NCBI GenBank assembly: GCA_958296285.1 | Contig: OY282459.1 | Coordinates: 1,208,336 to 1,272,335, forward strand | DNA length: 64,000 bases | Direction of reading: 5' to 3' | Origin: an uncultured Alphaproteobacteria bacterium | Lineage (GTDB): Bacteria > Pseudomonadota > Alphaproteobacteria > JAPOUT01 > G958296285 | Shown: positions 5,032 to 36,858 of the stretch, piece by piece | Layout: every line of letters starts with the position of its first letter | Numbering within the stretch: position 1 is the stretch's first letter | Notes under the pieces: model-generated | The model's input: only the letters and a program-made list of their open reading frames with translations | What the model was told of the DNA's origin: nothing | Database searches by the model: none | Position numbers and translations under genes: made by a program

Positions 5032-5146
5032 CGCGCGGAAAATTTCTCCAAACGAAACGACATCTTATTCTATACATCGGCGCGGGGATTGCCAAAAGCC
5101 GCGCGAAGCTCTATCTCAAACGCCAAACGCCGAATCAGGAGCAGCT

Positions 5147-21467: not shown

Positions 21468-22994
21468 ATGCGCCGCCGCAGATTTCTTAAAAACGCCGCC
21501 GCGACCGTCGCCGGCGTCTCATTTCTTCCGATGCTCGGCAGAAGCGCCGCCTTCGCGTTGAGCGATCCTTTCGTCAAAATGGACGCGACCGAGCAGGCGA
21601 GACGCGTCCGAGCAGGCGAGATTGATCCTGTGGAACTGCTGGAAGCCGCGATCAGACGAATAGAAGCGCTGAACCCGGCGCTTAACGCTGTCATTCATAA
21701 AATCTACGACAAAGCCCGCGAACTCGCGCGATCGGGCAGCCTTCCCGAAGGCGCGTTCCATGGCGTTCCCTATCTGATCAAGGATTTGGCGGAACTTGAA
21801 GGCGAGCCTCTGACGATGGGGTCTCGTCTTTTTGGCTTTGGCAATATCGCCGAATTTGATGTCGGGAGCGTCATGCGCGCGAAAGAGGCGGGTCTCGTCA
21901 TTCTCGGCAAGACGAACACGCCGGAATTCGGTCTGACCAGCACGACAGAATCGGTGCTTCTCGGCGCGGCGCGGAATCCATGGAACCCCGAATATCATAC
22001 AGGCGGATCGTCGGGGGGCGCGGCGGCGGCGGTCGCGTCCGGCATGACGCCGATCGCCCACGCTTCGGACGGCGGCGGCTCTATACGGATTCCGGCGTCC
22101 ATTTGCGGGCTTGTCGGCTTAAAACCGAGCCGCGGACGCCTCCATGTCGCCGAGGGCGAAGAGTTTCTAGGCGACATTGTCGTCCGTCTCGGCGTCAGCC
22201 GATCGGTGCGCGACACGGCGCGCCTCCTAGACATTGGCGAGCGGAAGGGATTCCGCGCGCATCTGCCGCCTGTCGGCATGGTGGAAAGACCATCGCGCGC
22301 GCGGCTCAAAATCGCCCTCCACACCAAGACCTATGTCGGAACGGAACCCCATCCGGACGTCAAAGCCGCGATTGAGAAAACCGCCCAACTCTGCGCCCGA
22401 TTGGGGCATGAAGTCACCGAGGCGCGTCCGCGCTACAATGGAGAGGAATTTCTGGAACACTTCATGGCGATCTGGACGACAACCCCTCTGGAACTCGCCG
22501 ACAATGCATGGATCATCGGCTTGGCGCAGGGACGGCTGCTCTCGGCGGAAGGCGCGCTGGAACCATGGACGCTCGGCTTGGCGGAATGGCATCGGAAGCG
22601 CGAGGAGGCGAAGCCCGGAATCGTCAAGCGCGCGCTGGACTATTTGGACAAATTCACCCGCCTCTATGACGACTATTTTCAGCGCTTTGACGCAGAGCTG
22701 ACTCCCGTCCTCCGACTGCCTCCGCGAAAACTCGGCGAGCAGGCGCCGACATTGGACTTTGAGACCGTCTATGATCGCGTGCTGGATTATGTCTCCTACA
22801 CGCCGCAGCATAACGCCGCCGGAACGCCGGCGATCTCGCTTCCCCTCTTTATGAGTCCTGACGGCCTCCCGATCGGAAGCCAATTCGCCGCGCGGCGAGG
22901 GCGCGAGAAGACCCTCCTAGAACTCGCTTATGAGCTGGAGCAGGCGCGACCATGGGCAGAGCGCTGGCCGGACATCTCCGCCGTCAATCTCTGA
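21468..22994 (+). CDS. Amidase-signature family amidase with Tat-type signal
   Basis: N-terminus MRRRRFLKNAAATVAG and amidase signature GGSSGGAAAAVA...DGGGSIRIPA. Confidence 0.85.
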   Translation: MRRRRFLKNAAATVAGVSFLPMLGRSAAFALSDPFVKMDATEQARRVRAGEIDPVELLEAAIRRIEALNPALNAVIHKIYDKARELARSGSLPEGAFHGVPYLIKDLAELEGEPLTMGSRLFGFGNIAEFDVGSVMRAKEAGLVILGKTNTPEFGLTSTTESVLLGAARNPWNPEYHTGGSSGGAAAAVASGMTPIAHASDGGGSIRIPASICGLVGLKPSRGRLHVAEGEEFLGDIVVRLGVSRSVRDTARLLDIGERKGFRAHLPPVGMVERPSRARLKIALHTKTYVGTEPHPDVKAAIEKTAQLCARLGHEVTEARPRYNGEEFLEHFMAIWTTTPLELADNAWIIGLAQGRLLSAEGALEPWTLGLAEWHRKREEAKPGIVKRALDYLDKFTRLYDDYFQRFDAELTPVLRLPPRKLGEQAPTLDFETVYDRVLDYVSYTPQHNAAGTPAISLPLFMSPDGLPIGSQFAARRGREKTLLELAYELEQARPWAERWPDISAVNL

Positions 22995-23090
22995 AAGCGA
23001 TAGTTTTAACGCTTGCCTTTCGCCGAAGATTTCATCAGAATTCCGCCCAACTCCAAGCGGGAGAGCAGGAGAGCAGGAGAGCAGGAAAGT

Positions 23091-23825
23091 ATGAGAGACG
23101 CCGAACAGGAAGCGCGCGTGGAACTCGCGGCAACCTATCGCCTTGTCGCCCATTATGGATGGGACGACCTCATCTACACCCATATTTCGGCGCGCGTGCC
23201 GGACGAGGATGGGCGATTCCTCATCAATCCCTATGGCATGGGCTTTGACGAAATCACCGCCTCCAATCTCATCAAAATAGATGTGGAGGGGAACAAAATC
23301 TCCGAATCCGATTATGACGTCAATCCTGCCGGCTTCACGATCCACAGCGCCGTCCATATGCACGACACGGAGGCGCATTGCGTCATTCATACCCATTCCA
23401 ATGACGGAGTCGCGGTCTCGGCGCAAGCCGAAGGGCTGCTGCCTCTGTCGCAGACGGCGATGATTATCCTCGGCGATCTCGCCTATCACGATTATGAGGG
23501 CATCGCGCTGGAACATGGCGAGCGCGAGCGTCTCGTCAAAGACCTCGGCGACAATCATTGCATGATCCTCCGCAACCACGGACTGCTGACGACAGGCGCC
23601 GATTGCGCTGACGCCTTTCTGCGTCTCTTCTTCATGGAGCGCGCCTGCACGATGCAAGTCAGAGGGCTGTCGGCGGGGCGCGAGCGCGTCAATATGCCGA
23701 ATCAGGGGGTCGCCGAAAAAACCGCCAGCCAAGCGAACTTCCGCGAGAGCAGAGGCTTCGGACAGATGGCATGGCCCGCCCTGATGCGGAAATTGGACAA
23801 AATAGACCCTTCTTTCAGGAACTGA
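23091..23825 (+). CDS. Class II aldolase/adducin-domain protein
   Basis: ELAATYRLVAHYGWDDLIYTHISARV... and HTHS motifs. The start at 23091 is preferred over the track start at 23013. Confidence 0.75.
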   Translation: MRDAEQEARVELAATYRLVAHYGWDDLIYTHISARVPDEDGRFLINPYGMGFDEITASNLIKIDVEGNKISESDYDVNPAGFTIHSAVHMHDTEAHCVIHTHSNDGVAVSAQAEGLLPLSQTAMIILGDLAYHDYEGIALEHGERERLVKDLGDNHCMILRNHGLLTTGADCADAFLRLFFMERACTMQVRGLSAGRERVNMPNQGVAEKTASQANFRESRGFGQMAWPALMRKLDKIDPSFRN

Positions 23826-23830
23826 CCCCG

Positions 23831-24853
23831 ATGCCGAAACTCATCCACAGCAATGACGAATTGATGGCGGAGCATGATTACGCCCGTCCGCATCAGGAAG
23901 GCGGCTATCGTCTGCATGGCGGCTTTGACGAGGCGGGGCGCTATATTTCGCCGCGCACGCTGCGCCGCGCGCCGGCGCTTCAAGCATGGGAGGAGGCGCT
24001 GAAGGCGCGAGGCGGAACGCTTTTGGACGCTTCCAAAGCGCTTCTCGCGCGAGGAACCTATCCCAATCAGCATCAGCAGCTCTTCCTTCTTGGGAACGGG
24101 TTCGGGCAGAGTTTTTGGAACTCGCTGACGATCACCGGCGTCATTGAGGCGCGAGGGCAGGCGCTCGTGGAATATCCCGCGCCGAAGATGCAGAAGATCT
24201 TCCATGAGGATATTTCCGCCATGTGCGTTGGACATTTGGAGAAGGGTCTTCTCGCGGCGCATGGCATGGATGAAGGCGGCGATCCCGCCCGTCCCGAAAT
24301 CGGCGCCCATGACGCCATGTGGTTCGCCGTCCGCGACATGATCTTCGGCGAAGACGCCTATCCCCGCCCCGAAGTCCCACAGAGCATCGGGCGTCCGAAA
24401 GAGGCGGCGTTCTTTCCCGATCTGCCCCCGCAATATGACGCTCTCTTGACGCTGCTGATGGACGTGCTGATGATTGAAGTCCGCGCGATCGCTTTCTTTG
24501 ATTTCTGCGTGAATATCTTGCGCGCGCCCGAATCTTTTCGCGGCAAGAACGCGGAGAAAGAACGCGCGGCTGTTCTCGTGGATCGCATTCGTCAAGATGA
24601 GATGGTTCATATCGGCTATCTCAGAATCGCCATGTCGGAAATGCGGCATTTGACGTTTCGGACAGTGTCCGGCGGCTCTCTTGACGGCAAGAGCGTCATA
24701 GATCCCGTTTGGCGGGATATGGTTCTGTGGCATGGCGAGACGCAGTTTGATCTGTTGCGCGAGCGCGCCCGCGCCTCGTTTCAAGAAAGAATGCCGGCGG
24801 CGCTCCTCAAGCAGTTTGACGCGCTGGAAGACGAAACCCCTCGCGCCGCCTAA
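23831..24853 (+). CDS. Hypothetical protein (340 aa), family not recognised
   Basis: Clean ORF starting MPKLIH, 5 nt after the aldolase stop. Codon usage matches its neighbours. I cannot name a motif with confidence. Confidence 0.55.
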   Translation: MPKLIHSNDELMAEHDYARPHQEGGYRLHGGFDEAGRYISPRTLRRAPALQAWEEALKARGGTLLDASKALLARGTYPNQHQQLFLLGNGFGQSFWNSLTITGVIEARGQALVEYPAPKMQKIFHEDISAMCVGHLEKGLLAAHGMDEGGDPARPEIGAHDAMWFAVRDMIFGEDAYPRPEVPQSIGRPKEAAFFPDLPPQYDALLTLLMDVLMIEVRAIAFFDFCVNILRAPESFRGKNAEKERAAVLVDRIRQDEMVHIGYLRIAMSEMRHLTFRTVSGGSLDGKSVIDPVWRDMVLWHGETQFDLLRERARASFQERMPAALLKQFDALEDETPRAA

Positions 24854-24879
24854 TCCCTTTAATGACAGGAGGATAGACA

Positions 24880-26169
24880 ATGAAATTCGGAATCTTTTAT
24901 GAGCATCAGCTTCCGCGCCCTTGGAAAGAGGGCGAGGAGCTGCAACTGTTTCAGGACGCGCTGGATCAGGTGGAACTCGCCGACAAACTCGGCATTGATT
25001 ACGCGTGGGAAGTGGAGCATCACTTTTTGGAGGAGTATTCGCATTCCTCCGCGCCCGAAGTTTTCCTCGCCGCCTGCTCGCAGAGGACAGAGCGGATTCG
25101 TTTGGGGCATGGGATCGTCCTGATGCCGCCGGGCTACAACCATCCGGCGCGAGTCGCCGAGCGCATCGCCACATTGGATTTGGTCTCCAAGGGCCGCGTG
25201 GAGTGGGGGACAGGCGAATCTTCCGCCATCTTGGAACTGGGCGGATACGGCGTCCCGGTGGAAGAGAAGCGCGATCAATGGCACGAGACTGTGGAGCAAG
25301 CCGCCAATATGCTCGCGATGGATCCTTATCCGGGCTTTGACGGGAAATATTTCTCCATGCCGTGCCGCAACATCGTTCCGAAGTCGGTGCAGAAGCCGCA
25401 TCCGCCGATCTGGGTCGCCTGCTCCAACCGCGAGACGATCAAACTCGCCGCCAAACTCGGCATTGGCGCGCTGACCTTCGCCTTCATTGATCCGAAGGAT
25501 GCGCGGCAGTGGGTCGGCGATTATTACCGCATTCTCAAAGAGGAATGCGTGCCGATTGGCCATGCGATCAATCCGAACATCTGCATGGTGAGCGGCTTCT
25601 CCATCCACGCGGACGCGCGGGAAGCCGTCCGCCGCGGCTTGGACGGCTTCCGCTTCTTCGGCTACGCGCTCGGGCATCATTATATTTTCGGCGAGCATAA
25701 GCCGGGGCGCACCGACATCTGGGCGAATTATGAGAAGACGCGCCAAGAAGGCGACATGGGCGAAGACGCCGGAATCGGCACGCCCGATGATCTCCGCCAG
25801 CATCTGCGCAAATTCTCGGGTTCCGGCGTGGATCAGGTCGCCTTCATTCAGCAGGGCGGACGCAACAAGCATCAGCATATTTGCGATGCGCTGGAACTTT
25901 TCGCCGAAGAGGTCATGCCGGAGTTCCATGAAGGCGAGGAGGAGCGCCAAGAGAAGAAGATAAAGGAACTCGCCCCTTATCTGGACGCCGCGATGGAGCG
26001 GAAGGATAAGATGCGTCCGCTTTCTGACGGTGAGATTCCGACTTTTGAGGCGCTTGGTCGTCAGATTGCCGAGCAGAAACTCACTCCCGAAGAAGAGAAA
26101 GCGCGCGATGAGTTTCTGAAAGCCTCGCATGTGCCGTTGGAGGATCCGACAAAAACGGCGGCGGAATGA
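24880..26169 (+). CDS. Luciferase-like (LLM class) flavin-dependent oxidoreductase
   Basis: MKFGIFYEHQLPRPW...GIDYAWEVEHHF...RIRLGHGI, typical of the LLM family. RBS GGAGG lies upstream. Confidence 0.8.
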   Translation: MKFGIFYEHQLPRPWKEGEELQLFQDALDQVELADKLGIDYAWEVEHHFLEEYSHSSAPEVFLAACSQRTERIRLGHGIVLMPPGYNHPARVAERIATLDLVSKGRVEWGTGESSAILELGGYGVPVEEKRDQWHETVEQAANMLAMDPYPGFDGKYFSMPCRNIVPKSVQKPHPPIWVACSNRETIKLAAKLGIGALTFAFIDPKDARQWVGDYYRILKEECVPIGHAINPNICMVSGFSIHADAREAVRRGLDGFRFFGYALGHHYIFGEHKPGRTDIWANYEKTRQEGDMGEDAGIGTPDDLRQHLRKFSGSGVDQVAFIQQGGRNKHQHICDALELFAEEVMPEFHEGEEERQEKKIKELAPYLDAAMERKDKMRPLSDGEIPTFEALGRQIAEQKLTPEEEKARDEFLKASHVPLEDPTKTAAE

Positions 26170-26894
26170 TGAAGAAGCCGATCGCGATTGTTTTGGGCGT
26201 TGGCGCGTCTGACGGTTTGGGCGCGGCGCTGGCGAGGCGCTTCGCTTCGGGCGGCATGGAGGTCGTCATTTCGGGTCGGACGGAGGAGAGGATCGCCAAA
26301 ATCGCCGAGGAGATCGGCGCGTCAGGGGGGAAGGCGCATTTTCATGCCGCCGATACCACTGATGCGGGGTCGGTAAGGTCTCTTTTTGAGATGGCGAGCG
26401 GGAAGGGCGGCATTGGCGCGGTTCTTTACAATGTTGGGAACAATATGCCTCTTCCTTTCGCTGATTTGACGCAGGAGATGTTTGAGGATTTTTGGCGCGT
26501 TTGTTGTTTCGGCGGATTCATCACGGCGAAGGCGGCGCTTCCCTTTTTGGAGGATGGCGGGGGGAGTTTATTTTTCACTGGGGCTTCGGCTTCCATGCGG
26601 GGTCGCGCGATGTTCGCGCATTTTGGATCGGCGAAGGCGGCGCTCAGGACTTTGGCGCAGGCTTTGGCGAAGGAATATGGGCCGCGGGGCGTTCATGTTG
26701 GTCATGTTGTTGTGGATGGGGCGATTGACGGGTCTAGGGTTCGCGAGCATTTTGCCGAGTATTTGGAGGGGTTGGGCGAGGATGGGTCGTTGAAGCCTGA
26801 TCATATTGCGGAGGCTTTTTGGATGATGCATAATCAGCATCGGAGCGTTTGGACGTTTGAGTTGGATGTTCGTCCGTTTAAGGAGAGTTGGTGA
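26166..26894 (+). CDS. Short-chain dehydrogenase/reductase
   Basis: N-terminal glycine-rich GVGASDGLGAALA, about 240 aa, ATGA overlap with the LLM gene. Confidence 0.8.
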   Translation: MMKKPIAIVLGVGASDGLGAALARRFASGGMEVVISGRTEERIAKIAEEIGASGGKAHFHAADTTDAGSVRSLFEMASGKGGIGAVLYNVGNNMPLPFADLTQEMFEDFWRVCCFGGFITAKAALPFLEDGGGSLFFTGASASMRGRAMFAHFGSAKAALRTLAQALAKEYGPRGVHVGHVVVDGAIDGSRVREHFAEYLEGLGEDGSLKPDHIAEAFWMMHNQHRSVWTFELDVRPFKESW

Positions 26895-26895
26895 G

Positions 26896-27114
26896 TCTCC
26901 CGTTAAGGGGGGTTTGGGGGGCTTAGCCCCCCAAGAAAACCAAGCGGGCGTAGCCCGCTACAGGTCGGCGGGCGTGGCGCAACGAAGCAAGCGAGGCGAG
27001 CATAGCGAGACGAGCTTGCGAGAAGCCCGCCGACCCCCCTGCTAGAAGAGCTGATAGGCGGGCTTGCGCCCGCCTTGTTTTTCGTGGGGGGCATAATGCC
27101 CCCCACACCCCCCT
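26896..27114. repeat. Palindromic repeat family, locus R3 (left arm plus short right arm)
   Basis: CTCCCGTTAAGGGGGGTTTGGGGGGCTTAGCCCCCC, AGCGGGCGTAGCCCGCT, the GTCGGCGGGC...GCCCGCCGAC long hairpin, a truncated centre, the GGCGGGCTTGCGCCCGCC hairpin, and GGGGGGCATAATGCCCCCC. Confidence 0.9.
27057..27084 (+). terminator. Intrinsic-terminator-like hairpin inside R3
   Basis: GGCGGGC-TTGC-GCCCGCC followed by TTGTTTTTCG, downstream of the SDR operon on the same strand. Confidence 0.5.
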
Positions 27115-27160
27115 TTTTTAAATCTTGACAAAACTCTTCGCCCAACCTAAAAGCAAAACC

Positions 27161-27472
27161 ATGACTGAGAGAACAAAAAGATTCTTCATCATCGCGCTCG
27201 CGGGAATCTTCCTGACCGCCTGCGCGAAACAGCAAGCGGGAATCACCGTCTCGCAATATGCCTCTGGAACGCCTGCCTTTGAGGAATCGCAATTCTTCTT
27301 CCTGTCAGGCATTGGACAAACAAAACATATCAACGCCGCAGAGATATGCAAAGGAGTGAGCAAAGTCCAGCGCGTGGAGTCGCAGCGGACGGGATGGGAT
27401 ATTGTTATTAGCGTTCTGACAGTGGGTATTATCACGCCCTGGACAGCCCGAGTTTATTGCGCAGGGAGATGA
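27161..27472 (+). CDS. Bor/Iss-family lipoprotein
   Basis: Lipobox LTAC. FFFLSGIGQTKHINAAEIC...TPWTARVYC matches the lambda Bor pattern (FFVSGIGQ...AAKIC...YTP..ARVYC) as recalled from memory. Confidence 0.75.
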   Translation: MTERTKRFFIIALAGIFLTACAKQQAGITVSQYASGTPAFEESQFFFLSGIGQTKHINAAEICKGVSKVQRVESQRTGWDIVISVLTVGIITPWTARVYCAGR

Positions 27473-27777
27473 AAATGACACGACTCGGCAAAATGATCCT
27501 TCCGTTCGCATGCATTCTTCTTCTTGCCTCATGCACGACACAGCGCTACGTCCTGCAGGAAAAGAAAATCGCGGATTTCGCTAATTATGAAAGCGGGCAA
27601 ACTTTCTTTCTTCAGGGGATCGGACAGACACAGCACATTGATGCCGCGCAAGTGTGCGGCGGCAAAAATAAAGTCGCGGCGGTAGAATTCCATCAAAGCG
27701 TGTTGGACATCCTTTTGGCGGTTTTGACCAATGGGCTTTATACTCCTCGGACAGTCGGGGTTTATTGCGCCCGCTAG
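27469..27777 (+). CDS. Bor/Iss-family lipoprotein (tandem paralog)
   Basis: Lipobox LASC and FFLQGIGQTQHIDAAQVCGG...YTPRTVGVYC. ATGA overlap with the first copy. Confidence 0.75.
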   Translation: MKMTRLGKMILPFACILLLASCTTQRYVLQEKKIADFANYESGQTFFLQGIGQTQHIDAAQVCGGKNKVAAVEFHQSVLDILLAVLTNGLYTPRTVGVYCAR

Positions 27778-27790
27778 CCGATAATCGGCT

Positions 27791-28522
27791 CTAGCCGATA
27801 AGAGTCTCTATCTCCTTTAGACACTCCGCCAACAGCTTCGGATGCGAGAAAAACGGCGAATGCGCCGAAGGCAAATCATAACGCCTCTCACAGCCGGCGC
27901 GCTCAACCATCCGAATCTGATTGGAATAACGGATCGCCTTGTCTTCCTTGCAAGCGATGTAATAGCGCTTCAGCCGACCAAAACGCTCCTCGCTCAAAGA
28001 CACTGCCTCCCGAAAAGGCGGCATCGCTTGCGGACGCAAATGCCGCTTGGCGAGAGCGATATCCTCGGCGGAGCAGTCTTCGTAGAAGCCGGGGACAAGA
28101 GCCTCGTCTTGGATTGTGAACTCTCCGCGAAGGTGATGAATCTTCAGGAAATCGGCAGGCTCGTCGGCAGGGATGAGGCTCATCAGGCTGTCGCCATTTT
28201 GAGGGAGAAACGCCGCCAAATAGATCAGCGCCCGAAAGCGATGCGGCGATCGCTCCGCCGCGGACGAAATCACAAGCCCTCCCATGGAATGTCCGACAGG
28301 CACGACATCGCCCTTTATGTTTTTGGCGAAATCGGCGACCGCGCGCCCATATTCTGCCATGCTGATTCGCCAGCCCCAGCGTTTTTGTGATTGTCCGAGT
28401 CCGGGCAGGTCTGGCGCCTGCCATTGCAGGCCGAGTTTTTTGAGTTCTGGCGTCAGACGCTGCCAGCACCATGCGCCGTGCCATGCGCCATGCACCAGCA
28501 AGAATGTTGGCGAGTTTGTCAT
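27791..28522 (-). CDS. Alpha/beta-fold hydrolase (esterase-like)
   Basis: FLLVHGAWHGAWCW N-terminus and the GHSMGG nucleophile elbow, 243 aa. Confidence 0.8.
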   Translation of the reverse strand: MTNSPTFLLVHGAWHGAWCWQRLTPELKKLGLQWQAPDLPGLGQSQKRWGWRISMAEYGRAVADFAKNIKGDVVPVGHSMGGLVISSAAERSPHRFRALIYLAAFLPQNGDSLMSLIPADEPADFLKIHHLRGEFTIQDEALVPGFYEDCSAEDIALAKRHLRPQAMPPFREAVSLSEERFGRLKRYYIACKEDKAIRYSNQIRMVERAGCERRYDLPSAHSPFFSHPKLLAECLKEIETLIG

Positions 28523-28561
28523 GGTTCTCCCCCTGATGTTCCGCCTGTTTTTGATTTCCGG

Positions 28562-28634
28562 TGCCGGCGGAGGGATTTGAACCCCCGACCCCCTGATTAC
28601 AAATCAGATGCTCTACCGACTGAGCTACACCGGC
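28562..28634 (-). tRNA. tRNA-Thr (anticodon UGU)
   Basis: The reverse complement folds by hand. Acceptor GCCGGTG/CGCCGGC (one G-U), D stem GCTC/GAGC, anticodon arm TCTGA-TTTGTAA-TCAGG, T arm GGGGG-TTCAAAT-CCCTC, discriminator A. Confidence 0.85.
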
Positions 28635-28646
28635 GCGAGAGCGGTT
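28572..28646. repeat. 75-bp direct repeat, left copy (tRNA-Thr positions 1-63 plus 12 nt of leader)
   Basis: Character-by-character identical to 30670..30744. Confidence 0.9.
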
Positions 28647-28715
28647 CTCTTCTTTGAACAACCTATACTCTATTGCGAGGGGCGGTCAAAGGCAGGAATG
28701 GCTTCGGGGCAGATA

Positions 28716-29759
28716 TCAACCAATTTGACGCATTCTAATCTGAAAGTTGTTTTTCTGCGCTTCTTCTTTAAGAAGAGTCAATGTCTTTTCCTGAATGACG
28801 CTCAAACGCGCCAAAGGCTTTCCGACGGTCAACTTCAAAACCGCTTTGGCGTTTAATTTTTTCCCATCCGCTTCCACATCCTGCAGGTTTGTGTACAGAA
28901 GCATCTTGATAAGGGCGTCTTTGATATCATCAATTGACGGTAATGCGTTTCTCGCGTGCTTTGCCTCTATCAAATGAATATCGGTTCCTTTCAGTTCCAC
29001 TTCATCTGCTGTGAAATAATAAAGGCCGCCAAGATAGTTCTTGATGGTTACGCTTGCCTTAGTTCCCGCAAGACGTTCTTTAGGCTGAACCGTAACAATT
29101 TCTCGCATTTGGGCATCTTTTGCCAATTGACGAGATAGATTCCTGAATTCCTCCGCACCCTTGCGCAATTTCGTGATCCTTCTCTCAAAAGTTTTGTGAG
29201 AATGCATCTCAACCCCGGTCTTCTTTGAAATGGTTTCATAATTTTCCAACGCTCTCTGAACATAAGAGCCGACCCTGTCAATTTCAGACAAATTCCAATG
29301 CAGCGCATCAGATTGATATGACAATATCTCCCTGATTCTCTTCTTTAGGTATCGCGCGTCAAATTGCTGATTTGTGATTTTGTCCGGATGGCGCGCGTTT
29401 CGCTCCGCGCTAGTGTAATAGCCAATGATCGCATATATGCCGATTAAGCTCATCAGTGAAATTGTGTCCCATTGCAAAAAATCTCTGTCTCCCCTTTTGC
29501 CTTCGTCTTTAACGATCGGAATGATCGTGATTCTCCTTCCGGAAAAGGAAAGAGTGTCATACACCCTCGCATAGGGATATGAGCGGGTGCGTTTTGGAGA
29601 CACCCAGCGGCTTACGGCGATTTTATGATCTTTGCCCGCATTCAGATTAAAGACTGAGTTCTTGAGAGCCTCTTCCAAATCCTTGAACGCATAATCCCTC
29701 CGCTCCGCGCAAAGAAGCGGCTTATAGCTAAGCCCTTTGATTTGCGCGGAGATATTCAT
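28716..29759 (-). CDS. Putative type II restriction endonuclease
   Basis: Overlaps the 3' end of the methyltransferase gene. It has a C-terminal PD-(D/E)XK-like motif (FTADEVELKGTDIHLIEAKH). GC is low relative to the flanks. The start MNISAQ at 29759 is assumed; the track ORF extends to 29789. Confidence 0.55.
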   Translation of the reverse strand: MNISAQIKGLSYKPLLCAERRDYAFKDLEEALKNSVFNLNAGKDHKIAVSRWVSPKRTRSYPYARVYDTLSFSGRRITIIPIVKDEGKRGDRDFLQWDTISLMSLIGIYAIIGYYTSAERNARHPDKITNQQFDARYLKKRIREILSYQSDALHWNLSEIDRVGSYVQRALENYETISKKTGVEMHSHKTFERRITKLRKGAEEFRNLSRQLAKDAQMREIVTVQPKERLAGTKASVTIKNYLGGLYYFTADEVELKGTDIHLIEAKHARNALPSIDDIKDALIKMLLYTNLQDVEADGKKLNAKAVLKLTVGKPLARLSVIQEKTLTLLKEEAQKNNFQIRMRQIG

Positions 29760-30600
29760 AATTGTCTGTCTGCCTCGTGATAATCTCAAATTGATCGTTT
29801 CTGTTGCTGAACAAATTGCCTTGTCCGCCGTGGAAGCCCAATTTTTCCTTAATGATGGGCAGGAGAGATTTTTTTATTTCAAAGCCGACGCTGTTTCTTT
29901 CCAGCTCGCGCGCCTTTTTCATGGTCGTGCCGCTGCCCGCGAAGGGATCCAGCACGGTTTCGCCCTTATAGGAGAAGAGTTTGATTGCCCGATAGGGCAG
30001 TTCTTCAGGGAAAGCGGCGATGTCCTTCTCAAGAGGCGAGCCGGGCATGACATTGTTCATTTCCCAAAGCGTCATATACCACTTCTTTTCTTGAAACTCT
30101 TTCGTATCCACTTTGGACGCTTCTCTCACAGATTGAGGAATAGAGCGGTAATTGAATTTCCCCTTCTGGAAGATGATGATGCTTTCAAGCAGGTTGTCGG
30201 GATAAAAATACATAGGATAAGGGTTCTGCAAAACGACTCCGCTACGACGGCTGATTCTCAGATAGCCGTCGGGTTTTTTCCAAATGATTCTATCCCTGTA
30301 TCGGAAGCCTGCCTCTTGAAAGATTTTTGTCGCGTCCGCGACGATCGGAAATTTCTCGCCATCAATCAGCATGTCATCTATGTTCAGCACGACGATCCTG
30401 CCGCTCTGCAGGACGCGGTGCGTTTCTTGGGCGAAATGCCGCAATATGTTGAGATATTGCTCGTAGCTCTTGAACAAGCCCTTATAGTCAAAGGGCGCGT
30501 TGAAGTAGGGGGGCGAGGTCACCATCAGATGGACGCTTCCGCTAGAAAGTTCCGCCATGCTGGTACAGCTGCCGAGAATAAGTTTATGATTCGTTCCCAT
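29728..30600 (-). CDS. Beta-class DNA methyltransferase (N4-cytosine or N6-adenine)
   Basis: Motif IV SPPY lies near the N-terminus and motif I DPFAGSGTT near the C-terminus (IV-before-I order). SPPY favours N4-cytosine. Confidence 0.85.
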   Translation of the reverse strand: MGTNHKLILGSCTSMAELSSGSVHLMVTSPPYFNAPFDYKGLFKSYEQYLNILRHFAQETHRVLQSGRIVVLNIDDMLIDGEKFPIVADATKIFQEAGFRYRDRIIWKKPDGYLRISRRSGVVLQNPYPMYFYPDNLLESIIIFQKGKFNYRSIPQSVREASKVDTKEFQEKKWYMTLWEMNNVMPGSPLEKDIAAFPEELPYRAIKLFSYKGETVLDPFAGSGTTMKKARELERNSVGFEIKKSLLPIIKEKLGFHGGQGNLFSNRNDQFEIITRQTDNYEYLRANQRA

Positions 30601-30669
30601 CTCTGCCGACCGTAGAGATTTTTAAAACTTTCGCAAGAAGAAACCGCATAGTTTGCTGTCGGGGATTGT

Positions 30670-30744
30670 GGGATTTGAACCCCCGACCCCCTGATTACAA
30701 ATCAGATGCTCTACCGACTGAGCTACACCGGCGCGAGAGCGGTT
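30670..30744 (-). pseudogene. Truncated duplicate of tRNA-Thr (positions 1-63 plus 12-nt leader), the right copy of the 75-bp direct repeat
   Basis: Identical to 28572..28646. The sequence that would form the 3' acceptor strand (AATCCCC) cannot pair with GCCGGTG, and the T stem has a mismatch. Confidence 0.8.
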
Positions 30745-31146
30745 TCATCCGGGCAGACGCTCATAACTTGCCACGCCTTCGGGGATTGTATGGAAGGTCT
30801 GTTTGTCTAGCGTGAAGATTGCCATATCCGGCATTCCGAAGATGCTGGGATCGTCCAGCGTTCCGACTTTGATGAAGACGAGCGGCATATTTGGCACACG
30901 CGAGACGATATGGGTTCCGCATGTTCCGCAGAATTCGCGGGTGCTGCCGTTTTCAAGGTCGGCTCGTTTGAAGTGTTTGGGTTCGCCTTTTGTGTATGCG
31001 AAGGAGTCTTCTGGGACGCCCATCAAGACGTTGGGTGATCCGCCTGAGATATATTGGCATTCGCGACAGTGGCATTGTCCTTTCATTGCGGGGTCTCCTG
31101 CTTTGTATTGGAGTTCGCCGCAATAGCATCGTCCTGTGGTTCCCAT
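30745..31146 (-). CDS. GFA (glutathione-dependent formaldehyde-activating / CENP-V-like) family protein
   Basis: Cys-rich pattern CYCGELQY...CHCRECQ...FCGTCGTHI, 133 aa. Confidence 0.8.
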   Translation of the reverse strand: MGTTGRCYCGELQYKAGDPAMKGQCHCRECQYISGGSPNVLMGVPEDSFAYTKGEPKHFKRADLENGSTREFCGTCGTHIVSRVPNMPLVFIKVGTLDDPSIFGMPDMAIFTLDKQTFHTIPEGVASYERLPG

Positions 31147-31302
31147 GATGTTTCCTTTTCTTATAGGGGTTTGATTGAGTGGGGTTATTATTCATGGGGG
31201 TTGCGTTTGATGTCAAGGCGGGCGGCGAGCCGCCGCGGGCATCTTTTGCATGGAGTGGAGTTTGTTTTTGCCGCAGGGGAACTAATGCATAGAAGCTAGA
31301 GG

Positions 31303-31514
31303 TGAAGGGGGGTTTGGGGGGCTAGCCCCCCAAGAAAAACCAAGCGGGCGTAAGCCCGCTATAGTCGGCGGGCGTGGCGCAACGAAGCAAGCGAGGCGAG
31401 CATAGCGAGACGAGCTTGCGAGAAAGCCCGCCGACCCCCCCTGCCGCTTGCATGAGTGGCGGGCTTCGCCCGCCTTGTTTTTTCGCGGGGGGTGTCGCAC
31501 CCCCCGCACCCCCC
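31303..31514. repeat. Palindromic repeat family, locus R4 (near-identical to R3, same orientation)
   Basis: It shares with R3 even the variable loop GTGGCGCAACGAAGCAAGCGAGGCGAGCATAGCGAGACGAGCTTGCGAGAA. Confidence 0.9.
31334..31360 (-). terminator. Intrinsic-terminator-like hairpin inside R4 (minus-strand sense)
   Basis: On the minus strand it reads AGCGGGC-TTAC-GCCCGCT followed by TGGTTTTTCTT. It lies downstream of the minus-strand Sel1 gene. Confidence 0.45.
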
Positions 31515-32111
31515 TTATTTGTCAGAATTTGCGTTAGGTTGCCAGTTCCGCGACAATCTCTGACCTTCGGCAATCTGTTCCTGCGTCATGGACTGTTCCA
31601 GTAAGTTAAGACATACGAGGGCGGATTCATGCCCTCGCGCCGATGCCAAATTGCACCACTTGTAAGCCTTCACATAATCCTTCGGAACGCCCCATCCTAG
31701 ATGATACATCAAGCCGAGAACACCCTGCGCCCATGCGTCGCCCTGATCGGCAGCCTTGCGGTACAAGCGCGCGGCTCTTTGATAATCCTTCGGAACGCCT
31801 TTGCCTTCGTAATACATTCTGCCGAGAAGAACTTGCGCCGATGCGTTGCCCTGATCCGCAGCTTTGTAATACCAGAGCAGAGCTTTCCGATAATCCTTCC
31901 CAACGCCCCAGCCATTGGCATACATCCAGCCGAGAAAGCCCTGCGCCGATGCCTCGCCCTTCTCGGCAAGAGGCAGGCATAAACGATAGGCGGTTTTATA
32001 GTCCTTGCGAACAGCTGCCGCCTCGCAGGAGTCGGCTGAAGCAGGAGGCGCGGCATGAAAAAACGCCAACGCGAAGAGACCCATAAAGAGCGCCGCCCGC
32101 TTATTCATCAT
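31515..32111 (-). CDS. Sel1-repeat protein, secreted
   Basis: Signal peptide and four Sel1 units. It is a close paralog of the N-terminal half of 39533..40906. The stop codon abuts R4. Confidence 0.8.
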   Translation of the reverse strand: MMNKRAALFMGLFALAFFHAAPPASADSCEAAAVRKDYKTAYRLCLPLAEKGEASAQGFLGWMYANGWGVGKDYRKALLWYYKAADQGNASAQVLLGRMYYEGKGVPKDYQRAARLYRKAADQGDAWAQGVLGLMYHLGWGVPKDYVKAYKWCNLASARGHESALVCLNLLEQSMTQEQIAEGQRLSRNWQPNANSDK

Positions 32112-32253
32112 CGCCCTCTTCCATTAACCCTAGCCTAGCCAAGATTATAGCACCTTTTCTCAGCAAGAACTCTTTAGGATTGCGCGAAAAGCCTAGAACA
32201 TCTATTGTCATCAAGACCCTACCATCGCCTCTGGCGCAAAAGAGGAGCGAGAC

Positions 32254-32475
32254 ATGAAGAATCGCGGAGCGACCCTTAAGGATAAGCGGAAAGCAAGCCT
32301 CTTAATCCGATTCTTGAAAGAGTTTGATGCTCATCCTTTGGTGCTTTTTGATCTTGGAGGTGGGAGTTTTGGGCGCTTTGGCAGAGATCACGCTGACGCG
32401 GACGCTTTAACATCGGACATGGCAGCCATCGGACGCGATATGCATAAGGTTCTTGAGAGAATTGACCGAGGATAA
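32254..32475 (+). CDS. Hypothetical 73-aa protein
   Basis: ORF only, with no recognisable motif. It overlaps the next ORF in another frame. Confidence 0.3.
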   Translation: MKNRGATLKDKRKASLLIRFLKEFDAHPLVLFDLGGGSFGRFGRDHADADALTSDMAAIGRDMHKVLERIDRG

Positions 32476-32878
32476 AAATAAAGATCCTTCGGGCGAGAAT
32501 ATCGCGCCATCTTCTCGCAAGGAAGATGGCGTTCCTGCGGTTGTTCGTCAGAGCGCTCATTTTTCGGGCCCCATTCCGCCTCCTCAAATTCTAAAGCAGT
32601 ATGGGGACGTCATGCCCGGCTTGCCTGAAAAGATTGTCGCGAGTTGGGAGGCGGAGCAGAGGCATCGTCGGGGCATGCAGAGCAAAGCGCAGATCATGGC
32701 GTTTATTTTGGTTTTGCTAGCTTTCGGGATCACTGTGTTGTTGATTTTTGAGAGGCAATATATTGCGGCGGGCGTATTTGGGAGTTTTTCCACGTTATTT
32801 GTTGTTCTCGGCGCGGGGTTGTTTAATTATTTCGTTCATCTGCTTCGGGGACGCAGAGCAGCCGACAATGAGGAATGA
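32453..32878 (+). CDS. DUF2335-like membrane protein
   Basis: IPPPQILKQYGDVMPGLPEKIVASWEAEQRHRR followed by two TM helices, the DUF2335 pattern as I recall it. The start codon (TTG) is uncertain. Confidence 0.6.
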   Translation: MRELTEDKNKDPSGENIAPSSRKEDGVPAVVRQSAHFSGPIPPPQILKQYGDVMPGLPEKIVASWEAEQRHRRGMQSKAQIMAFILVLLAFGITVLLIFERQYIAAGVFGSFSTLFVVLGAGLFNYFVHLLRGRRAADNEE

Positions 32879-32905
32879 ATTTTCGCTGTTCCTCTCTGCT
32901 CGCTT

Positions 32906-33052
32906 GAGCTCTTGCGAGCAGGGGGTCGGCGGGCTTCTCGCGGGCTTGCCTACGGCTTCGCCCGCTTCGTTGCGCCACGCCCGCCGACTATTCGGGGGGA
33001 TTCCCCCCGATCCCCCCTTCTTCGCGGGGGGCTTCGCCCCCCACACCCCCCC
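32906..33052. repeat. Palindromic repeat family, locus R5 (right arm only)
   Basis: GAGCTCTTGCGAGCAGGGGG, the GTCGGCGGGC...GCCCGCCGAC hairpin, GGGGGGATTCCCCCC, GGGGGGCTTCGCCCCCC. Confidence 0.9.
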
Positions 33053-33118
33053 TTGACCAAAAACATATTCCCTCCTAACTATATGCAAATCATTCTCACT
33101 CGCAAATAAAGCAACCCC

Positions 33119-33418
33119 ATGCCCCGAACCCTCGCCTACGCCCTCTGCGCCGCGACAACAATCGCCCTCGCCTCGCACGCCCAGGCAGAGGAAGACTGCC
33201 TCGTCCCATACAAAGCCTTCCAAAAATATACCCCCAGCATCGCCCTCCAAACATGCCCCGATTGGACAGACGCCGACAACGGTTTCTGCCGACTCACCCT
33301 AGAAGATGGACGCGCGACAATGTATATCTTTGAGAAAGACAATGGCGAAGCCTGTCTGAAGCGCGCGCGATCATGGTCTGTGGAAGCCTTCTTCAAACGC
33401 TTCGCCGAAGGCTTCTAA
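33119..33418 (+). CDS. Small secreted cysteine-containing hypothetical protein
   Basis: Signal peptide MPRTLAYALCAATTIALASHAQA, four Cys in the mature part, 99 aa. Confidence 0.45.
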   Translation: MPRTLAYALCAATTIALASHAQAEEDCLVPYKAFQKYTPSIALQTCPDWTDADNGFCRLTLEDGRATMYIFEKDNGEACLKRARSWSVEAFFKRFAEGF

Positions 33419-33446
33419 CGACAGAGCGACAGAAGGGGAGGGCAAA

Positions 33447-34907
33447 ATGGCAAAAGAAACGGGAATCTCCGCCTTCGGAGCCTATATTCCGCGTCTGCGT
33501 CTGAAACGACAGGCGGCGGCCATGGCAAACGCATGGCTCGCGCCGGCGCTTATCGCCAAAGCCAAGGGCTTCCGAAGCATGGCGAACTGGGACGAAGACA
33601 GCCTCACCATGGCCGTGGAAGCATGCCGCGATCTCCTCGGACCCGACGACAATCGCGAGCACGTGGATTCGCTCGCCTTCGCCTCCACGACCATGCCCTT
33701 CGCCGACAGACAAAATAGCGCGATTGTCGCCGCCGCGCTGACGCTCAAAGAGGATATGCGCTCTTGGGACGCCAGCGCCTCCATGCGCGCCGGAACGAGC
33801 GCGCTCATCCAAGCCTTCGTCTCAGCGAGGGCGGGCGAGGGCAGCGCGCTTGTCGTGGCGTCTGACAAAAGACGCGCCCGCGCCGCCAGCGCGCAAGAGC
33901 TGGATTACGGCGACGGCGCCGCGGCGTTCTTGGTCGGGCAGGGCGAGGGAATCGCCAAATTTCTCGGATCCCACACGCTCACCGTGGATTTCGCCGATCA
34001 CTTTCGCGGCGCGTCAGAAGAGTTTGATTATCACTGGGAGGAGCGATGGATACGCGATGAGGGTTTCGCCAAACTTGTCCCGCAGACAGTCGGCGCGCTT
34101 TTCAAGAAAACGGGCGCGAAGCCTTCGGACGTGAAGCATTTTATTCTGCCTTGTCCGTTTCCGAGGATTGTCGGGGGGCTGGCGAAAAGCTGCGGCGTTT
34201 CTCCTGACGCGGTTCGGGATTCTTTGGCGGAGGAGGTCGGCGCGACAGGCGCGGCGCATCCGTTTCTGATGCTGGCGCATGCGTTGGAGGAGGCGAAGCC
34301 GGGCGAGAAGATTCTGTTGGCGCAGTTCGCGTCTGGCTGTGATGCGCTTCTTTTTGAGGCGACAAAGGACATAAAGGCGAAAGTTTCGCATCGGCGGGGC
34401 GTATCGGGGCATTTGTCGGAGCGGCAGGAGGAGGAGAACTATATGAAGTTCTTGGTCTTCAATGGTCTCATTGAGTGGGAGAAGGGGATGCGCGCCGAGC
34501 AGGATCGCAAGACGGCTTTGACCACTTTATATCGGAACAGGGAGGCGATTTTGGGTTTGGTGGGCGGCAAATGTTCCAAGACGGGGACGATACAGTTTCC
34601 TCGCACGCGGATATCGGTCAATCCGAATGATCCTGCTGTGGATACGCAGGAGCCTTATAAGTTCGCGGAGCGGAGGGCGAAGATTTTGTCGTGGTCGGGG
34701 GATTATTTGTCGTTTGGGGTCAATCCGCCGAATCACTATGGGATGATGGTTTTTGACGAGGGCGGACGGATTATGATGGACATGACGGATGTTTCGCCGG
34801 GGGAGGTTGAGACGGGGATGTTGGTTCGGATGGTTTTTCGGGTGAAGGATGTTGATGAGAAGCGGGGTTTCACGCGGTATTTTTGGAAGGCTGTGCCTGT
34901 GCGGTAG
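33447..34907 (+). CDS. HMG-CoA-synthase-like (thiolase-fold) domain fused to DUF35-type Zn-ribbon/OB-fold domain
   Basis: The N-terminus GISAFGAYIPRLRL...DEDSLTMAVEA resembles archaeal-type HMGCS. The C-terminus (GGKCSKTGTIQFP...MVFR) resembles DUF35. Confidence 0.7.
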   Translation: MAKETGISAFGAYIPRLRLKRQAAAMANAWLAPALIAKAKGFRSMANWDEDSLTMAVEACRDLLGPDDNREHVDSLAFASTTMPFADRQNSAIVAAALTLKEDMRSWDASASMRAGTSALIQAFVSARAGEGSALVVASDKRRARAASAQELDYGDGAAAFLVGQGEGIAKFLGSHTLTVDFADHFRGASEEFDYHWEERWIRDEGFAKLVPQTVGALFKKTGAKPSDVKHFILPCPFPRIVGGLAKSCGVSPDAVRDSLAEEVGATGAAHPFLMLAHALEEAKPGEKILLAQFASGCDALLFEATKDIKAKVSHRRGVSGHLSERQEEENYMKFLVFNGLIEWEKGMRAEQDRKTALTTLYRNREAILGLVGGKCSKTGTIQFPRTRISVNPNDPAVDTQEPYKFAERRAKILSWSGDYLSFGVNPPNHYGMMVFDEGGRIMMDMTDVSPGEVETGMLVRMVFRVKDVDEKRGFTRYFWKAVPVR

Positions 34908-34929
34908 TTAGGCTCGGCGTTTTGACGCG

Positions 34930-35090
34930 CTCCCGTTAAGGGGGGTTTGGGGGGCTAGCCCCCCAAAAAAAACCAAGCGGGCGAAGCCCGCTATAGTCGG
35001 CGGGCGTGGCGAAACGAAGCGGGCGCAGCGCGTAGCGCAAGCCCGCGAGAAAGCCCGCCGACCCCCCTGAACGCCAAGAGCTCTTGCGAG
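34930..35090. repeat. Palindromic repeat family, locus R6 (left arm)
   Basis: CTCCCGTTAAGGGGGGTTTGGGGGGCTAGCCCCCC, AGCGGGCGAAGCCCGCT, the GTCGGCGGGC...GCCCGCCGAC hairpin, and the centre CAAGAGCTCTTGCGAG. Confidence 0.9.
34965..34992 (-). terminator. Intrinsic-terminator-like hairpin inside R6 (minus-strand sense)
   Basis: On the minus strand it reads AGCGGGC-TTC-GCCCGCT followed by TGGTTTTTTTT. It lies downstream of the minus-strand small ORF 35112..35435. Confidence 0.5.
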
Positions 35091-35111
35091 CGGGGAAATC
35101 TTGTTGAGGCT

Positions 35112-35435
35112 TCACCCGAACATGATTCGGATGAAAGCCATCGCCATAAGACCCAATATCCCTCCGCACATCCATTTTAGCAGGGTGATGTCGGCTCGGA
35201 CTTCTCCGAGGCCTTTTTGCATCTCGGCTCGGAGTTCTCCGGAGTTTTTTTCCATTTCGGCTCGGATTTCTCCGAAGCCTTTTTCCATGTCGGCTCGGAG
35301 TTCTCCGATTTGCACTTCCATACGCCGCAACCGCGCTTCTTCGCGGACGTTTTCTATGGCTTCTACGGCGGCGGTGGCTTTGGCGTCATCCACATTCGCG
35401 GCTTTGAGCGCGTCATAGACTGCGACAAGGCTCAT
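35112..35435 (-). CDS. Small tail-anchored coiled-coil protein (DUF1640-like, from memory)
   Basis: Repetitive LRADMEKGFGEIRAEMEKNSGELRAEMQKGLGEVRADI followed by the C-terminal TM WMCGGILGLMAMAFIRIMF. It sits between inverted arms R6 and R7. Confidence 0.55.
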   Translation of the reverse strand: MSLVAVYDALKAANVDDAKATAAVEAIENVREEARLRRMEVQIGELRADMEKGFGEIRAEMEKNSGELRAEMQKGLGEVRADITLLKWMCGGILGLMAMAFIRIMFG

Positions 35436-35535
35436 GGTTTTCTCCTTCGAATGGTATCTGTGTAGCAGTTTTCTGTCTCACCCGCAATTTCCTAACGAGA
35501 GAAAGAGAAAAAAGCGCCCCACGCGCCCCATGCCG

Positions 35536-35705
35536 CAAGAGCTCTTTTAGCAGGGGGGTCGGCGGGCTTTCTCGCGGGCTTGCGCTGTCGCGCTTCGCCC
35601 GCTTCGTTGCGCCACGCCCGCCGACTTTTCGGGGGGGATTCCCCCCCGATCCCCCTCTTTTTTTGGGGGGCTAGCCCCCCAAACCCCCCTCCACGGGAGC
35701 AAGCC
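35536..35705. repeat. Palindromic repeat family, locus R7 (right arm)
   Basis: CAAGAGCTCTTTTAGCAGGGGGG, the long hairpin, GGGGGGGATTCCCCCCC, GGGGGGCTAGCCCCCC, CACGGGAGCAAGCC. Confidence 0.9.
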
Positions 35706-35728
35706 AAAACTCCTATAATCATAAAACT

Positions 35729-36775
35729 ATGAAAGAAAATATCCGCCCAGCCCTCCTCACCCTCTCCATCAGCGCATTCCTCTGCGCCGCGCCATCCGCC
35801 CGCGCCAACCCCTGCTCAGAGGCCTATGAAAGCGACAAACGCAAAGAAACAAAAAAAGCCTACAGCCTCTGCCTGCCCCTCGCCGTGGAAGGAGACGCCG
35901 AAGCCCAAAAAAACCTCGGATGGCTCCACGCCCACAGCAACCTCGTAACCCAAGATGACGACGTCGCCGTCTATTGGCTCCGCAAAGCCGCGAAGCAAGG
36001 CAATGCGACGGCAGAATATCTCCTCGGCGGAATGTATGAGGACGGCAGAGGAGTCCCGAAAAATAACGAGAAAGCCATGCGATGGTATCTCAAAGCCGCG
36101 AAACAAGGCCAGGCTCTCGCGGAAAATGAACTTGGCTGGATCTATCATAAAGGCACGATCGCCCCGCAAGATTACGCGAAAGCCCTGCGATGGTATCGCA
36201 AAGCCGCCAAGCGTGGCGATGAATGGGCGCAATTTCATCTGGGCAAGATGCTTGAAGAAGGCGAAGGCGTGGAGCAAGATTTCGCCGAAGCCGCGCGCCT
36301 CTATCGCCAAGCGGCGAAGCAGGGCTTGGCATGGGCGCAGTTTCATCTGGGCATGATGTATCAAAAAGGCAAGGGCGTTCCAAAAGACGCGGCGAAAGCC
36401 ATCTTCTGGTATCACGAAGCCGGCAATAAAGGGTGGTCGGAGGCGATCCACGCCCTAGGCGCGATGCACGACAAAGGAGACGGCGTCAAACAGGACAAGG
36501 AGAAAGCCCTTGAATGGTATGGGATAGCCGCTCAGCGAGGCTACGCGGAGTCGCAATATGCGCTCGGCGTGATGCATCGGGACGGCGAGAGCGTGGAGCA
36601 AGATTTGGTGGAAGCGCATAAGTGGATCGGGCTCGCGTCTCCGCACATGAAAAAGGCTCTCAAGGAACTCCTCCTCCTGCAAAAGCAAATGACGCGCGCC
36701 CAAATCGCCGAAGCGCAAGCTCTCGCCCGCGAATGGCACAAAGGTCGGAATGGCAAAGGAAGCGAACCTCCATAA
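35729..36775 (+). CDS. Sel1-repeat protein, secreted (348 aa)
   Basis: Signal peptide and about eight Sel1 units (..A..WY.KAAKQG.A.A...LG.MY..G.GV..D). Confidence 0.85.
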   Translation: MKENIRPALLTLSISAFLCAAPSARANPCSEAYESDKRKETKKAYSLCLPLAVEGDAEAQKNLGWLHAHSNLVTQDDDVAVYWLRKAAKQGNATAEYLLGGMYEDGRGVPKNNEKAMRWYLKAAKQGQALAENELGWIYHKGTIAPQDYAKALRWYRKAAKRGDEWAQFHLGKMLEEGEGVEQDFAEAARLYRQAAKQGLAWAQFHLGMMYQKGKGVPKDAAKAIFWYHEAGNKGWSEAIHALGAMHDKGDGVKQDKEKALEWYGIAAQRGYAESQYALGVMHRDGESVEQDLVEAHKWIGLASPHMKKALKELLLLQKQMTRAQIAEAQALAREWHKGRNGKGSEPP

Positions 36776-36858
36776 ACAGATCGCCTCTTGCCACGATCGC
36801 AAAAAATGCTAGACTCCTCGCCACCCGAACCCTGCCAAAACAAAGAGGGAGAAACATC

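Follow-up and report, generated by a model that had tools for sequence, protein, structure and literature searches.

How does a two-gene restriction-modification (R-M) cassette come to lie between two perfect copies of the 5' part of a tRNA gene, with no recombinase gene beside it? The question is raised by a 64,000-nt stretch of contig OY282459.1 (the window, to which all positions below refer; positions 1,208,336 to 1,272,335 of the forward strand in assembly GCA_958296285.1), from an uncultured Alphaproteobacteria bacterium, where a DNA methyltransferase gene (M) and a restriction endonuclease gene (R) are enclosed by 75-bp direct repeats made of tRNA-Thr(UGU) sequence. The cassette probably arrived by an integrase-independent process, named 'insertion with long target duplication' by the group of Kobayashi (Nobusato et al. 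2000, Gene 259:99; Furuta, Abe & Kobayashi 2010, PMC2853133). An earlier interpretation made from the letters alone (the sequence-only reading) had described an M/R pair, an intact tRNA on the left, a duplicated 5' tRNA part and no nearby recombinase, without naming this class, and it is supported overall by the analysis reported here.

The two repeats are identical at all 75 positions and are the only two copies of this sequence within the window, whose mononucleotide shuffles gave longest exact repeats of just 14-16 nt. Read on the minus strand, each consists of a 12-nt upstream spacer followed by tRNA-Thr(UGU) positions 1-63, which is the composition that the sequence-only reading had assigned to them, perfect identity included. 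The copies differ in what follows: the left one runs on into the correct T stem and acceptor strand, the right one into unrelated sequence. Only on the left is there a native 3' end (positions 64-73), which makes that copy the working tRNA and reduces its counterpart on the right to a dead 5' fragment. The left copy scored 73.8 bits against the Rfam tRNA model with no non-canonical pairs, and its minimum-free-energy (MFE) structure is the cloverleaf (-29.9 kcal/mol). The right copy scored 46.6 bits, with three of the seven acceptor pairs and one T-stem pair broken; its MFE fold (z -1.4) is not a cloverleaf, and the intact acceptor and T stem of a canonical tRNA are missing. The claim of a single intact tRNA on the left is thus confirmed, and the right copy did not turn out to be a functional tRNA on proper folding; had it done so, the earlier interpretation would have been refuted. 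Both copies were called by ARAGORN and lay above the Rfam gathering score; the ARAGORN call of the right copy is leniency, and annotators should be aware that a dead tRNA fragment is accepted as a tRNA by both tools. No other tRNA-Thr(UGU) was found in the 64-kb window.

The insert between the repeats measures 2,023 bp, of which M and R occupy 1,885 bp, leaving no room for a third gene. The end of M overlaps the start of R by 32 nt, the true start of R being the ATG at 29759 (a TTG at 29789 was considered and rejected). The M product matches PF01555 (4e-44 in Pfam) and PADLOC MTase_II (1.2e-72), and its best solved relative is Thermus thermophilus TTHA0409 (PDB 2zie; 1.7e-25 over residues 5-254), a beta-class N6/N4 methyltransferase that has the PF01555 fold in common with M but is only distantly related to it; M carries SPPY, not DPPY, in motif IV. 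We take the SPPY variant to suggest N4-cytosine methylation. The R product matches PADLOC REase_II PDLC03572 (E 1.3e-88), and no match was found in Pfam, NCBIfam or PDB, profile searches against PDB included. It has 3,504 homologues; the best among the matches listed are ~60-65% identical and, where really named, are called 'hypothetical'. Their alignment contains the invariant residues D252, E265 and K267 (D...ExK, a PD-(D/E)XK-type motif), and the AlphaFold (AF2) model is poor (predicted local distance difference test score, pLDDT, of 54), with sub-threshold Foldseek matches only, several of which are PD-(D/E)XK nucleases; by its residues R probably belongs to the PD-(D/E)XK kind. M and R are accordingly a type II pair with predicted methylation and cleavage, and the methyltransferase/endonuclease pair proposed earlier for positions 28716-30600 is borne out by the PADLOC assignments.

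The composition of the cassette is foreign: its G+C (GC) content is 46.5%, compared to 58.2% in the window and 57% in the 5-kb flanks, so the low GC noted earlier stands, with 22 G+C in the 60 nt of positions 28741-28800. Neither integrases nor transposases were detected in Pfam scans of the genes between ~13.5 and 43.2 kb (within ~13 kb of the cassette), in agreement with their absence from the sequence-only reading, and the insert has no terminal inverted repeats. Between the genes and the repeats lie two orphan spacers of equal length (28647-28715 and 30601-30669), with no blastn homology to 80 cassette loci of other genomes or to the window. Two sets of short matches at the junctions were set aside. 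The 11-nt TCGGGGATTGT, found at the right junction (30659-30669) and once more in the 3' end of the neighbouring GFA-family gene (30779-30789), was judged a chance sharing, because ~14 other 10-11-mers recur within the same 2.9 kb and its blast E against the window is 0.72; GGGATT and TTTGAAC, shared by the cassette ends with the repeat at its T-arm edge, are likewise at chance level and were given no weight. A search for the recognition site through palindrome avoidance in the 80 carrier loci gave generic palindromes only (GGCC, GATC, CTAG) and no specific signal.

The class to which we assign the insertion is delimited by an insert that contains R and M, is shorter than 20 kb and carries no mobility genes, with flanking repeats longer than 30 bp (PMC2853133). 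In the window, both genes lie inside the insert (PADLOC REase_II and MTase_II, PF01555), the insert is about a tenth of the length limit and holds no other mobile-element genes, and the repeat exceeds the minimum without being a dispersed multi-copy sequence (two copies in the window, and a unitig at ~2x depth in the reads). The likeness extends further: R and M stand alone, the repeat falls within the published range of ~26-420 bp, the GC content is below that of the host, a stop codon directly adjoins the repeat and the site is operon-like. Repeats of the published cases often span a stop or start codon, the neighbouring genes survive, and the insertion is sometimes located in an operon-like unit (PMC2853133). 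The window differs from them in its target, a tRNA gene of which the 5' part and the leader were duplicated, so that the working tRNA is found downstream of the cassette. With these features the cassette is a tidy addition to a known class of R-M insertion rather than the first of a new one.

Within the locus itself, a duplication in situ is argued for most strongly by the identity of the repeats, which covers the spacer up to the GFA stop codon despite the compositionally foreign nature of the cassette. Because the repeat takes in this non-tRNA spacer and ends exactly where GFA has its stop codon, it is best read as duplicated local sequence and not as an attachment (att) site imported with a foreign element. 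We propose the following course of events: a minimal, promoter-less, foreign M-R cassette would have inserted into the host tRNA-Thr(UGU) gene without a site-specific recombinase, and the insertion event would have duplicated 75 bp of the target, consisting of the 12-nt GFA-tRNA spacer and tRNA positions 1-63. RecA recombination between the repeats would then delete the cassette, restore the locus and release a 2,098-bp circle with one repeat. The coordinates of the features are listed in Table 1.

Table 1 Features of the cassette and of the adjoining genes in the window.
Feature	Positions	Strand	Description
Alpha/beta-hydrolase gene	27791-28522	minus	Pfam Abhydrolase_6, 2e-23
Intact tRNA-Thr(UGU)	28562-28634	minus	Rfam tRNA, ARAGORN, MFE cloverleaf
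Left 75-bp direct repeat	28572-28646		tRNA positions 1-63 and 12-nt upstream spacer; 100% identical to 30670-30744
Orphan spacer, R stop to left repeat	28647-28715	minus	69 nt
R, type II restriction endonuclease gene	28716-29759	minus	347 aa; PADLOC REase_II PDLC03572
M, beta-class N6/N4 DNA methyltransferase gene	29728-30600	minus	290 aa; SPPY motif; PF01555
Orphan spacer, pseudo-tRNA to M start codon	30601-30669	minus	69 nt
Pseudo-tRNA	30660-30732	minus	5' 63 nt of tRNA-Thr, then unrelated sequence
Right 75-bp direct repeat	30670-30744		Right edge is the first base past the GFA stop codon
GFA-family gene	30745-31146	minus	Pfam GFA, 8.5e-25
Best sigma-70-like site in the region	31187-31216	minus	TTGACA-18-AATAAT, 11/12 matches; consensus match only

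The state of the locus in the population was followed in four metagenome runs from one sample, through Logan k=31 contigs, which break at the repeat. Depths were 5.4 and 8.2 in the two flanks, 7.5 in the cassette and 13.4 in the repeat unitig for run X1; 11.5 and 9.5, 11.6 and 23.4 for X2; 7.2 and 10, 9.1 and 19.4 for X3; and 16.3 and 16.6, 19.6 and 40.3 for X4. The cassette/flank ratio was 1.06-1.19 over the four runs, and the repeat unitig reached ~2x the flanks; since the depth of the cassette equals that of its flanks, virtually every sampled cell carries it, with about one copy per genome. A second strain predominates in run X4; it is 0.2-1.8% diverged over positions 22000-37000, has a 19-nt insertion after 24840 and harbours the cassette at the identical site. 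Within the cassette this strain differs at 3 of 2,086 positions (0.14%), compared to 21 of 1,150 (1.8%) and 5 of 510 (1.0%) in the adjacent flanks (regional mean 0.70%, range 0.23-1.8%), and its right repeat has T at 30742 where the left copy keeps G, the window allele. This pattern suggests that, once inserted, the cassette passed from strain to strain through homologous recombination, although the contrast in divergence is not decisive, because the region 25122-26895 is also only 0.23% diverged.

Relatives of R were sought among the GTDB species representatives, where at least 293 bacterial and archaeal loci were found; the 80 that were fetched span Patescibacteria, Omnitrophota, Dehalococcoidia, Hydrogenobacter, Pseudothermotoga, DPANN archaea, Archaeoglobus and others. 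A complete M homologue lies directly upstream of R and overlaps it in 66 of the 80 loci, and most of the others are cut by contig ends; in the 66 complete loci, M homologues are mostly 70-83% identical to the window protein and R homologues 52-65%. Homology to other cassettes at the DNA level starts exactly at the ATG of M and ends inside the 3' end of R. In three longer contexts with gene calls, the pair is located among housekeeping or other defence genes, and no integrase was found in any of these three. The R protein had no match in PLSDB (72,556 plasmids), in the GenBank phages (50,697 records) or in IMG/VR (2.9 million viral contigs). By these sequence comparisons the M-R pair is a naked, chromosome-borne and very widely transferred two-gene unit.

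Several loci of the family have peculiarities of their own. In Hydrogenobacter (L128; tRNA at 6095-6169) and in a metagenome-assembled genome of Elusimicrobia (L123; 6143-6232), the cassette ends ~50-100 nt upstream of a same-strand tRNA (Val and Leu, respectively), with no tRNA fragment on the opposite side of the cassette; in several further loci, co-oriented tRNAs lie within 600 bp. A Rosettibacter locus carries a 67-aa HTH_3 gene (4951-5154, controller-protein-like) before M-R and a ThsB-TIR gene after it; the window cassette, unlike this one, has no HTH_3-type regulator. A second Hydrogenobacter locus (L151; 5001-6029) has an R homologue with no detectable M homologue upstream, and in two Poribacteria loci (L150 and L155; 4146-4970) R is paired with a far more distant methyltransferase (32% identity) in the same position. 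An Altarchaeum contig of 2,361 bp (L142) contains the M-R pair and the 5' part of a glycosyltransferase gene, with identical ends (1-82 and 2280-2361); two readings fit, a circular molecule or a cassette whose long flanking direct repeats were collapsed by the assembler.

Some of the results weigh against an insertion with long target duplication. Protein-anchored scans of the GTDB representatives and JGI metagenomes with the hydrolase and GlmS of the window found no close relative in which an empty site could be seen (best relatives: hydrolase at most 44% identity, GlmS at most 46%), the exact tRNA of the host was absent from the genome and metagenome contigs searched, and exact-protein look-ups were empty; with no empty-site genome found, the target duplication is an inference and falls short of demonstration. 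An integrated cassette and an equimolar circle beside an empty site look alike in the k=31 contigs; no joint of an excised circle or of an empty site was seen in them, but they could not have shown one, since they break at the repeat. Flanking direct repeats are also no general trait of the family: over 52 loci, the longest direct match equalled the inverted control (median of 9 nt each), and a window-shift control gave 2 of 42 for real loci and 1 of 39 for pseudo-loci. Long flanking repeats do occur in single members (45 bp in L116, 53 bp in L131, 46 bp in L127 and the 82-bp contig ends of L142), with no enrichment over the controls.

Two of the competing explanations invoke a circle. The cassette may have entered as a circular molecule with one 75-bp copy, released from the corresponding locus of a sister strain, and have recombined with the intact tRNA-Thr gene by a RecA-mediated single crossover (Campbell-type re-insertion); the repeats would then be products of homologous recombination and the original duplication would have arisen elsewhere. 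A perfect identity of 75 bp suffices for RecA. The low divergence of the cassette in the X4 strain relative to its flanks hints at lateral spread in the population, the allele of that strain at 30742 is confined to the right repeat, and the Altarchaeum contig with identical 82-bp ends could be such a circle. We consider this route unlikely: it only shifts the origin of the duplication one step back, and the similarly low divergence of the region 25122-26895 leaves the divergence contrast indecisive. Far less credible is an assembly artefact, in which a single intact chromosomal tRNA would exist and the cassette with one repeat would be a separate 2.1-kb circle misthreaded into the contig. The k=31 unitigs would give identical junction words for both configurations, but a cassette/flank depth near unity in four runs and two strains would be unlikely for an episome, such a circle would carry no replication gene, and the source contig, of ~1.73 Mb, implies an assembly that resolved the 75-bp repeat.

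The other explanations concern the tRNA gene as a target. If the repeats were the attL and attR of a tRNA-targeting element carrying the 5' part of the tRNA, its integrase would have been deleted or would act in trans on a cis-mobilisable element. tRNA genes are a classic integration target, and the left edge of the repeat falls in the T arm, which is reportedly (Williams 2002) a known sublocation of crossover. The geometry is also admissible: the sequence-only reading had called it the reverse of the usual one, correctly in that the duplicated piece is the 5' part plus the leader, a rarer arrangement which the Islander algorithm nevertheless accepts as a 5' fragment upstream of a regenerated tDNA (PMC4383910). 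As in tRNA-integrated islands, an intact tDNA and a co-oriented displaced fragment, here both on the minus strand with the 5' fragment upstream of the intact tDNA, bracket foreign DNA, and the length of more than 2 kb passes the filters; the window departs from them in the absence of a tyrosine integrase in or overlapping the island (M and R only), which is the defining filter, in the non-tRNA spacer of its repeat and in an insert of 2 kb with two cargo genes. Elements derived from integrative elements and mobilisable in cis (CIMEs) are known from the Streptococcus thermophilus literature; they share with the window att-like direct repeats around cargo without a recombinase of its own, but no cognate integrative element or integrase was seen in the 64-kb window. 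With no integrase within ~13 kb and no room for one in the insert, identity that extends over a 12-nt non-tRNA spacer although the cassette is compositionally foreign, and homologous cassettes that are naked M-R pairs without integrases in three contexts, we regard an integrase-derived island as improbable. The tRNA-linked R-M cases of Furuta et al., moreover, all have an integrase and a duplicated 3' end (PMC2853133). 'Chance insertions between repeated sequences' are another of the three classes of repeat-flanked R-M units in the same survey (PMC2853133). Such an event would start here from two tandem tRNA-Thr genes, with illegitimate recombination putting the cassette in the place of the spacer between them and of the 3' end of the upstream gene. 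Although tandem tRNA genes are common, this course appears quite improbable: it needs two events and two 100% identical copies, including a leader of exactly 12 nt that meets the end of GFA, and no remnant of a second 3' end or of the spacer is present. An insertion with long target duplication thus remains the explanation that we prefer.

What the insertion means for the locus depends on its native organisation. The 12-nt spacer separates the tRNA from GFA, whose stop codon ends at 30745, and the intact tRNA is followed on its strand, after 37 nt, by the start of the hydrolase. The single strong promoter-like site in 3 kb lies upstream of GFA (31216-31187). Judged by these sequence features, GFA, tRNA and hydrolase were probably one native transcription unit with the hydrolase as its last member, and because of this tight same-strand spacing (12 and 37 nt) and the lone strong promoter-like site upstream of GFA, the cassette is placed in-line in a probable operon. 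The site is a candidate promoter of the whole series, from GFA through pseudo-tRNA, M, R and tRNA to the hydrolase. M and R would probably be transcribed from it, and the intact tRNA and the hydrolase would probably be reached by read-through, followed by processing of the transcript. An in-cassette promoter for the intact tRNA was looked for in the orphan spacer next to the left repeat, where a weak TTGACC-N16-TATAGG fails the scan criteria. The dependence of the tRNA on read-through, proposed in the earlier interpretation, is therefore plausible and is refined here to an in-line operon position; the distance between the putative promoter and the intact tRNA has grown from ~0.5 to ~2.6 kb.

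The genes scanned with Pfam between ~13.5 and 43.2 kb encode CysNC, GlmU, GlmS, an amidase, a luciferase-like oxygenase, an SDR protein, two Bor-like lipoproteins, the hydrolase, the GFA protein, Sel1 proteins, a thiolase and TauD. The two lipoprotein genes, of the lambda Bor family (PF06291), are tandem and overlapping (27125-27472 and 27457-27777), lie beside the hydrolase and have a GC content of 0.50-0.55. A dispersed intergenic repeat family is present at 26897-27009, 31308-31512, 32955-33051, 34916-35041 and 35591-35713; its copies occur in both orientations, are GC-rich and palindromic, with GGGGGGCTAGCCCCCC cores, and resemble repetitive extragenic palindromes or miniature inverted-repeat transposable elements. 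In run X4 their depth was hundreds-fold, compared to ~16 for unique sequence, and many contig 'joints' connect copies. Two direct copies flank the block of Bor, hydrolase, tRNA, cassette and GFA. Tandem repeats are found nearby as well: a 33-nt repeat at 35188-35307, in a small open reading frame on the minus strand (35112-35435), gives a repeated 'RAEMEKxxGE' peptide, and 108-nt repeats at 31674-31997 and 35950-36378 correspond to Sel1 repeats.

The composition of the window bears on restriction in this lineage. TCGA is the lowest of the 256 tetramers, with 5 sites observed (6423, 35447, 39518, 48862 and 60066) and 317 expected (ratio of 0.016), uniformly along the 64 kb. This loss is not due to deamination, because TTGA/TCAA are not in excess. 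Other motifs are depleted too (observed/expected): GGCC 0.13, GGWCC 0.13, GGCGCC 0.18, CGWCG 0.19 and CCWGG 0.22. The window cassette contains no TCGA, compared to 2-9 sites in homologous cassettes of comparable GC. From these counts the lineage seems to have been long under TCGA- and GGCC-specific restriction, with the incoming cassette conforming to this filter.

The repeat may also have a role in later movement of the cassette. In a speculative extension, to which we give only a slight chance, the duplicated tRNA piece would act as a portable homology address for integrase-free, scarless and reversible movement of M-R: the released 2.1-kb circle, made of the cassette and 63 nt of conserved tRNA, would re-insert by RecA into matching tRNA-Thr genes. 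If true, this could help to explain the hundreds of bacterial and archaeal carriers despite the lack of plasmid, phage and viral matches to R, and the position between an essential tRNA and its promoter would discourage imprecise loss of the cassette. The locus exemplifies, in unusually clean form (perfect repeats, minimal insert, exact junctions), R-M mobility that is probably independent of an integrase, in a lineage without sequenced relatives. Its interest, otherwise modest, gains a little from the tRNA target, from the displacement of an essential tRNA and from the very broad distribution of the pair without a vehicle. It offers a natural test case for the origin of long target duplications and for the tolerance of an essential tRNA to a 2-kb shift away from its promoter.

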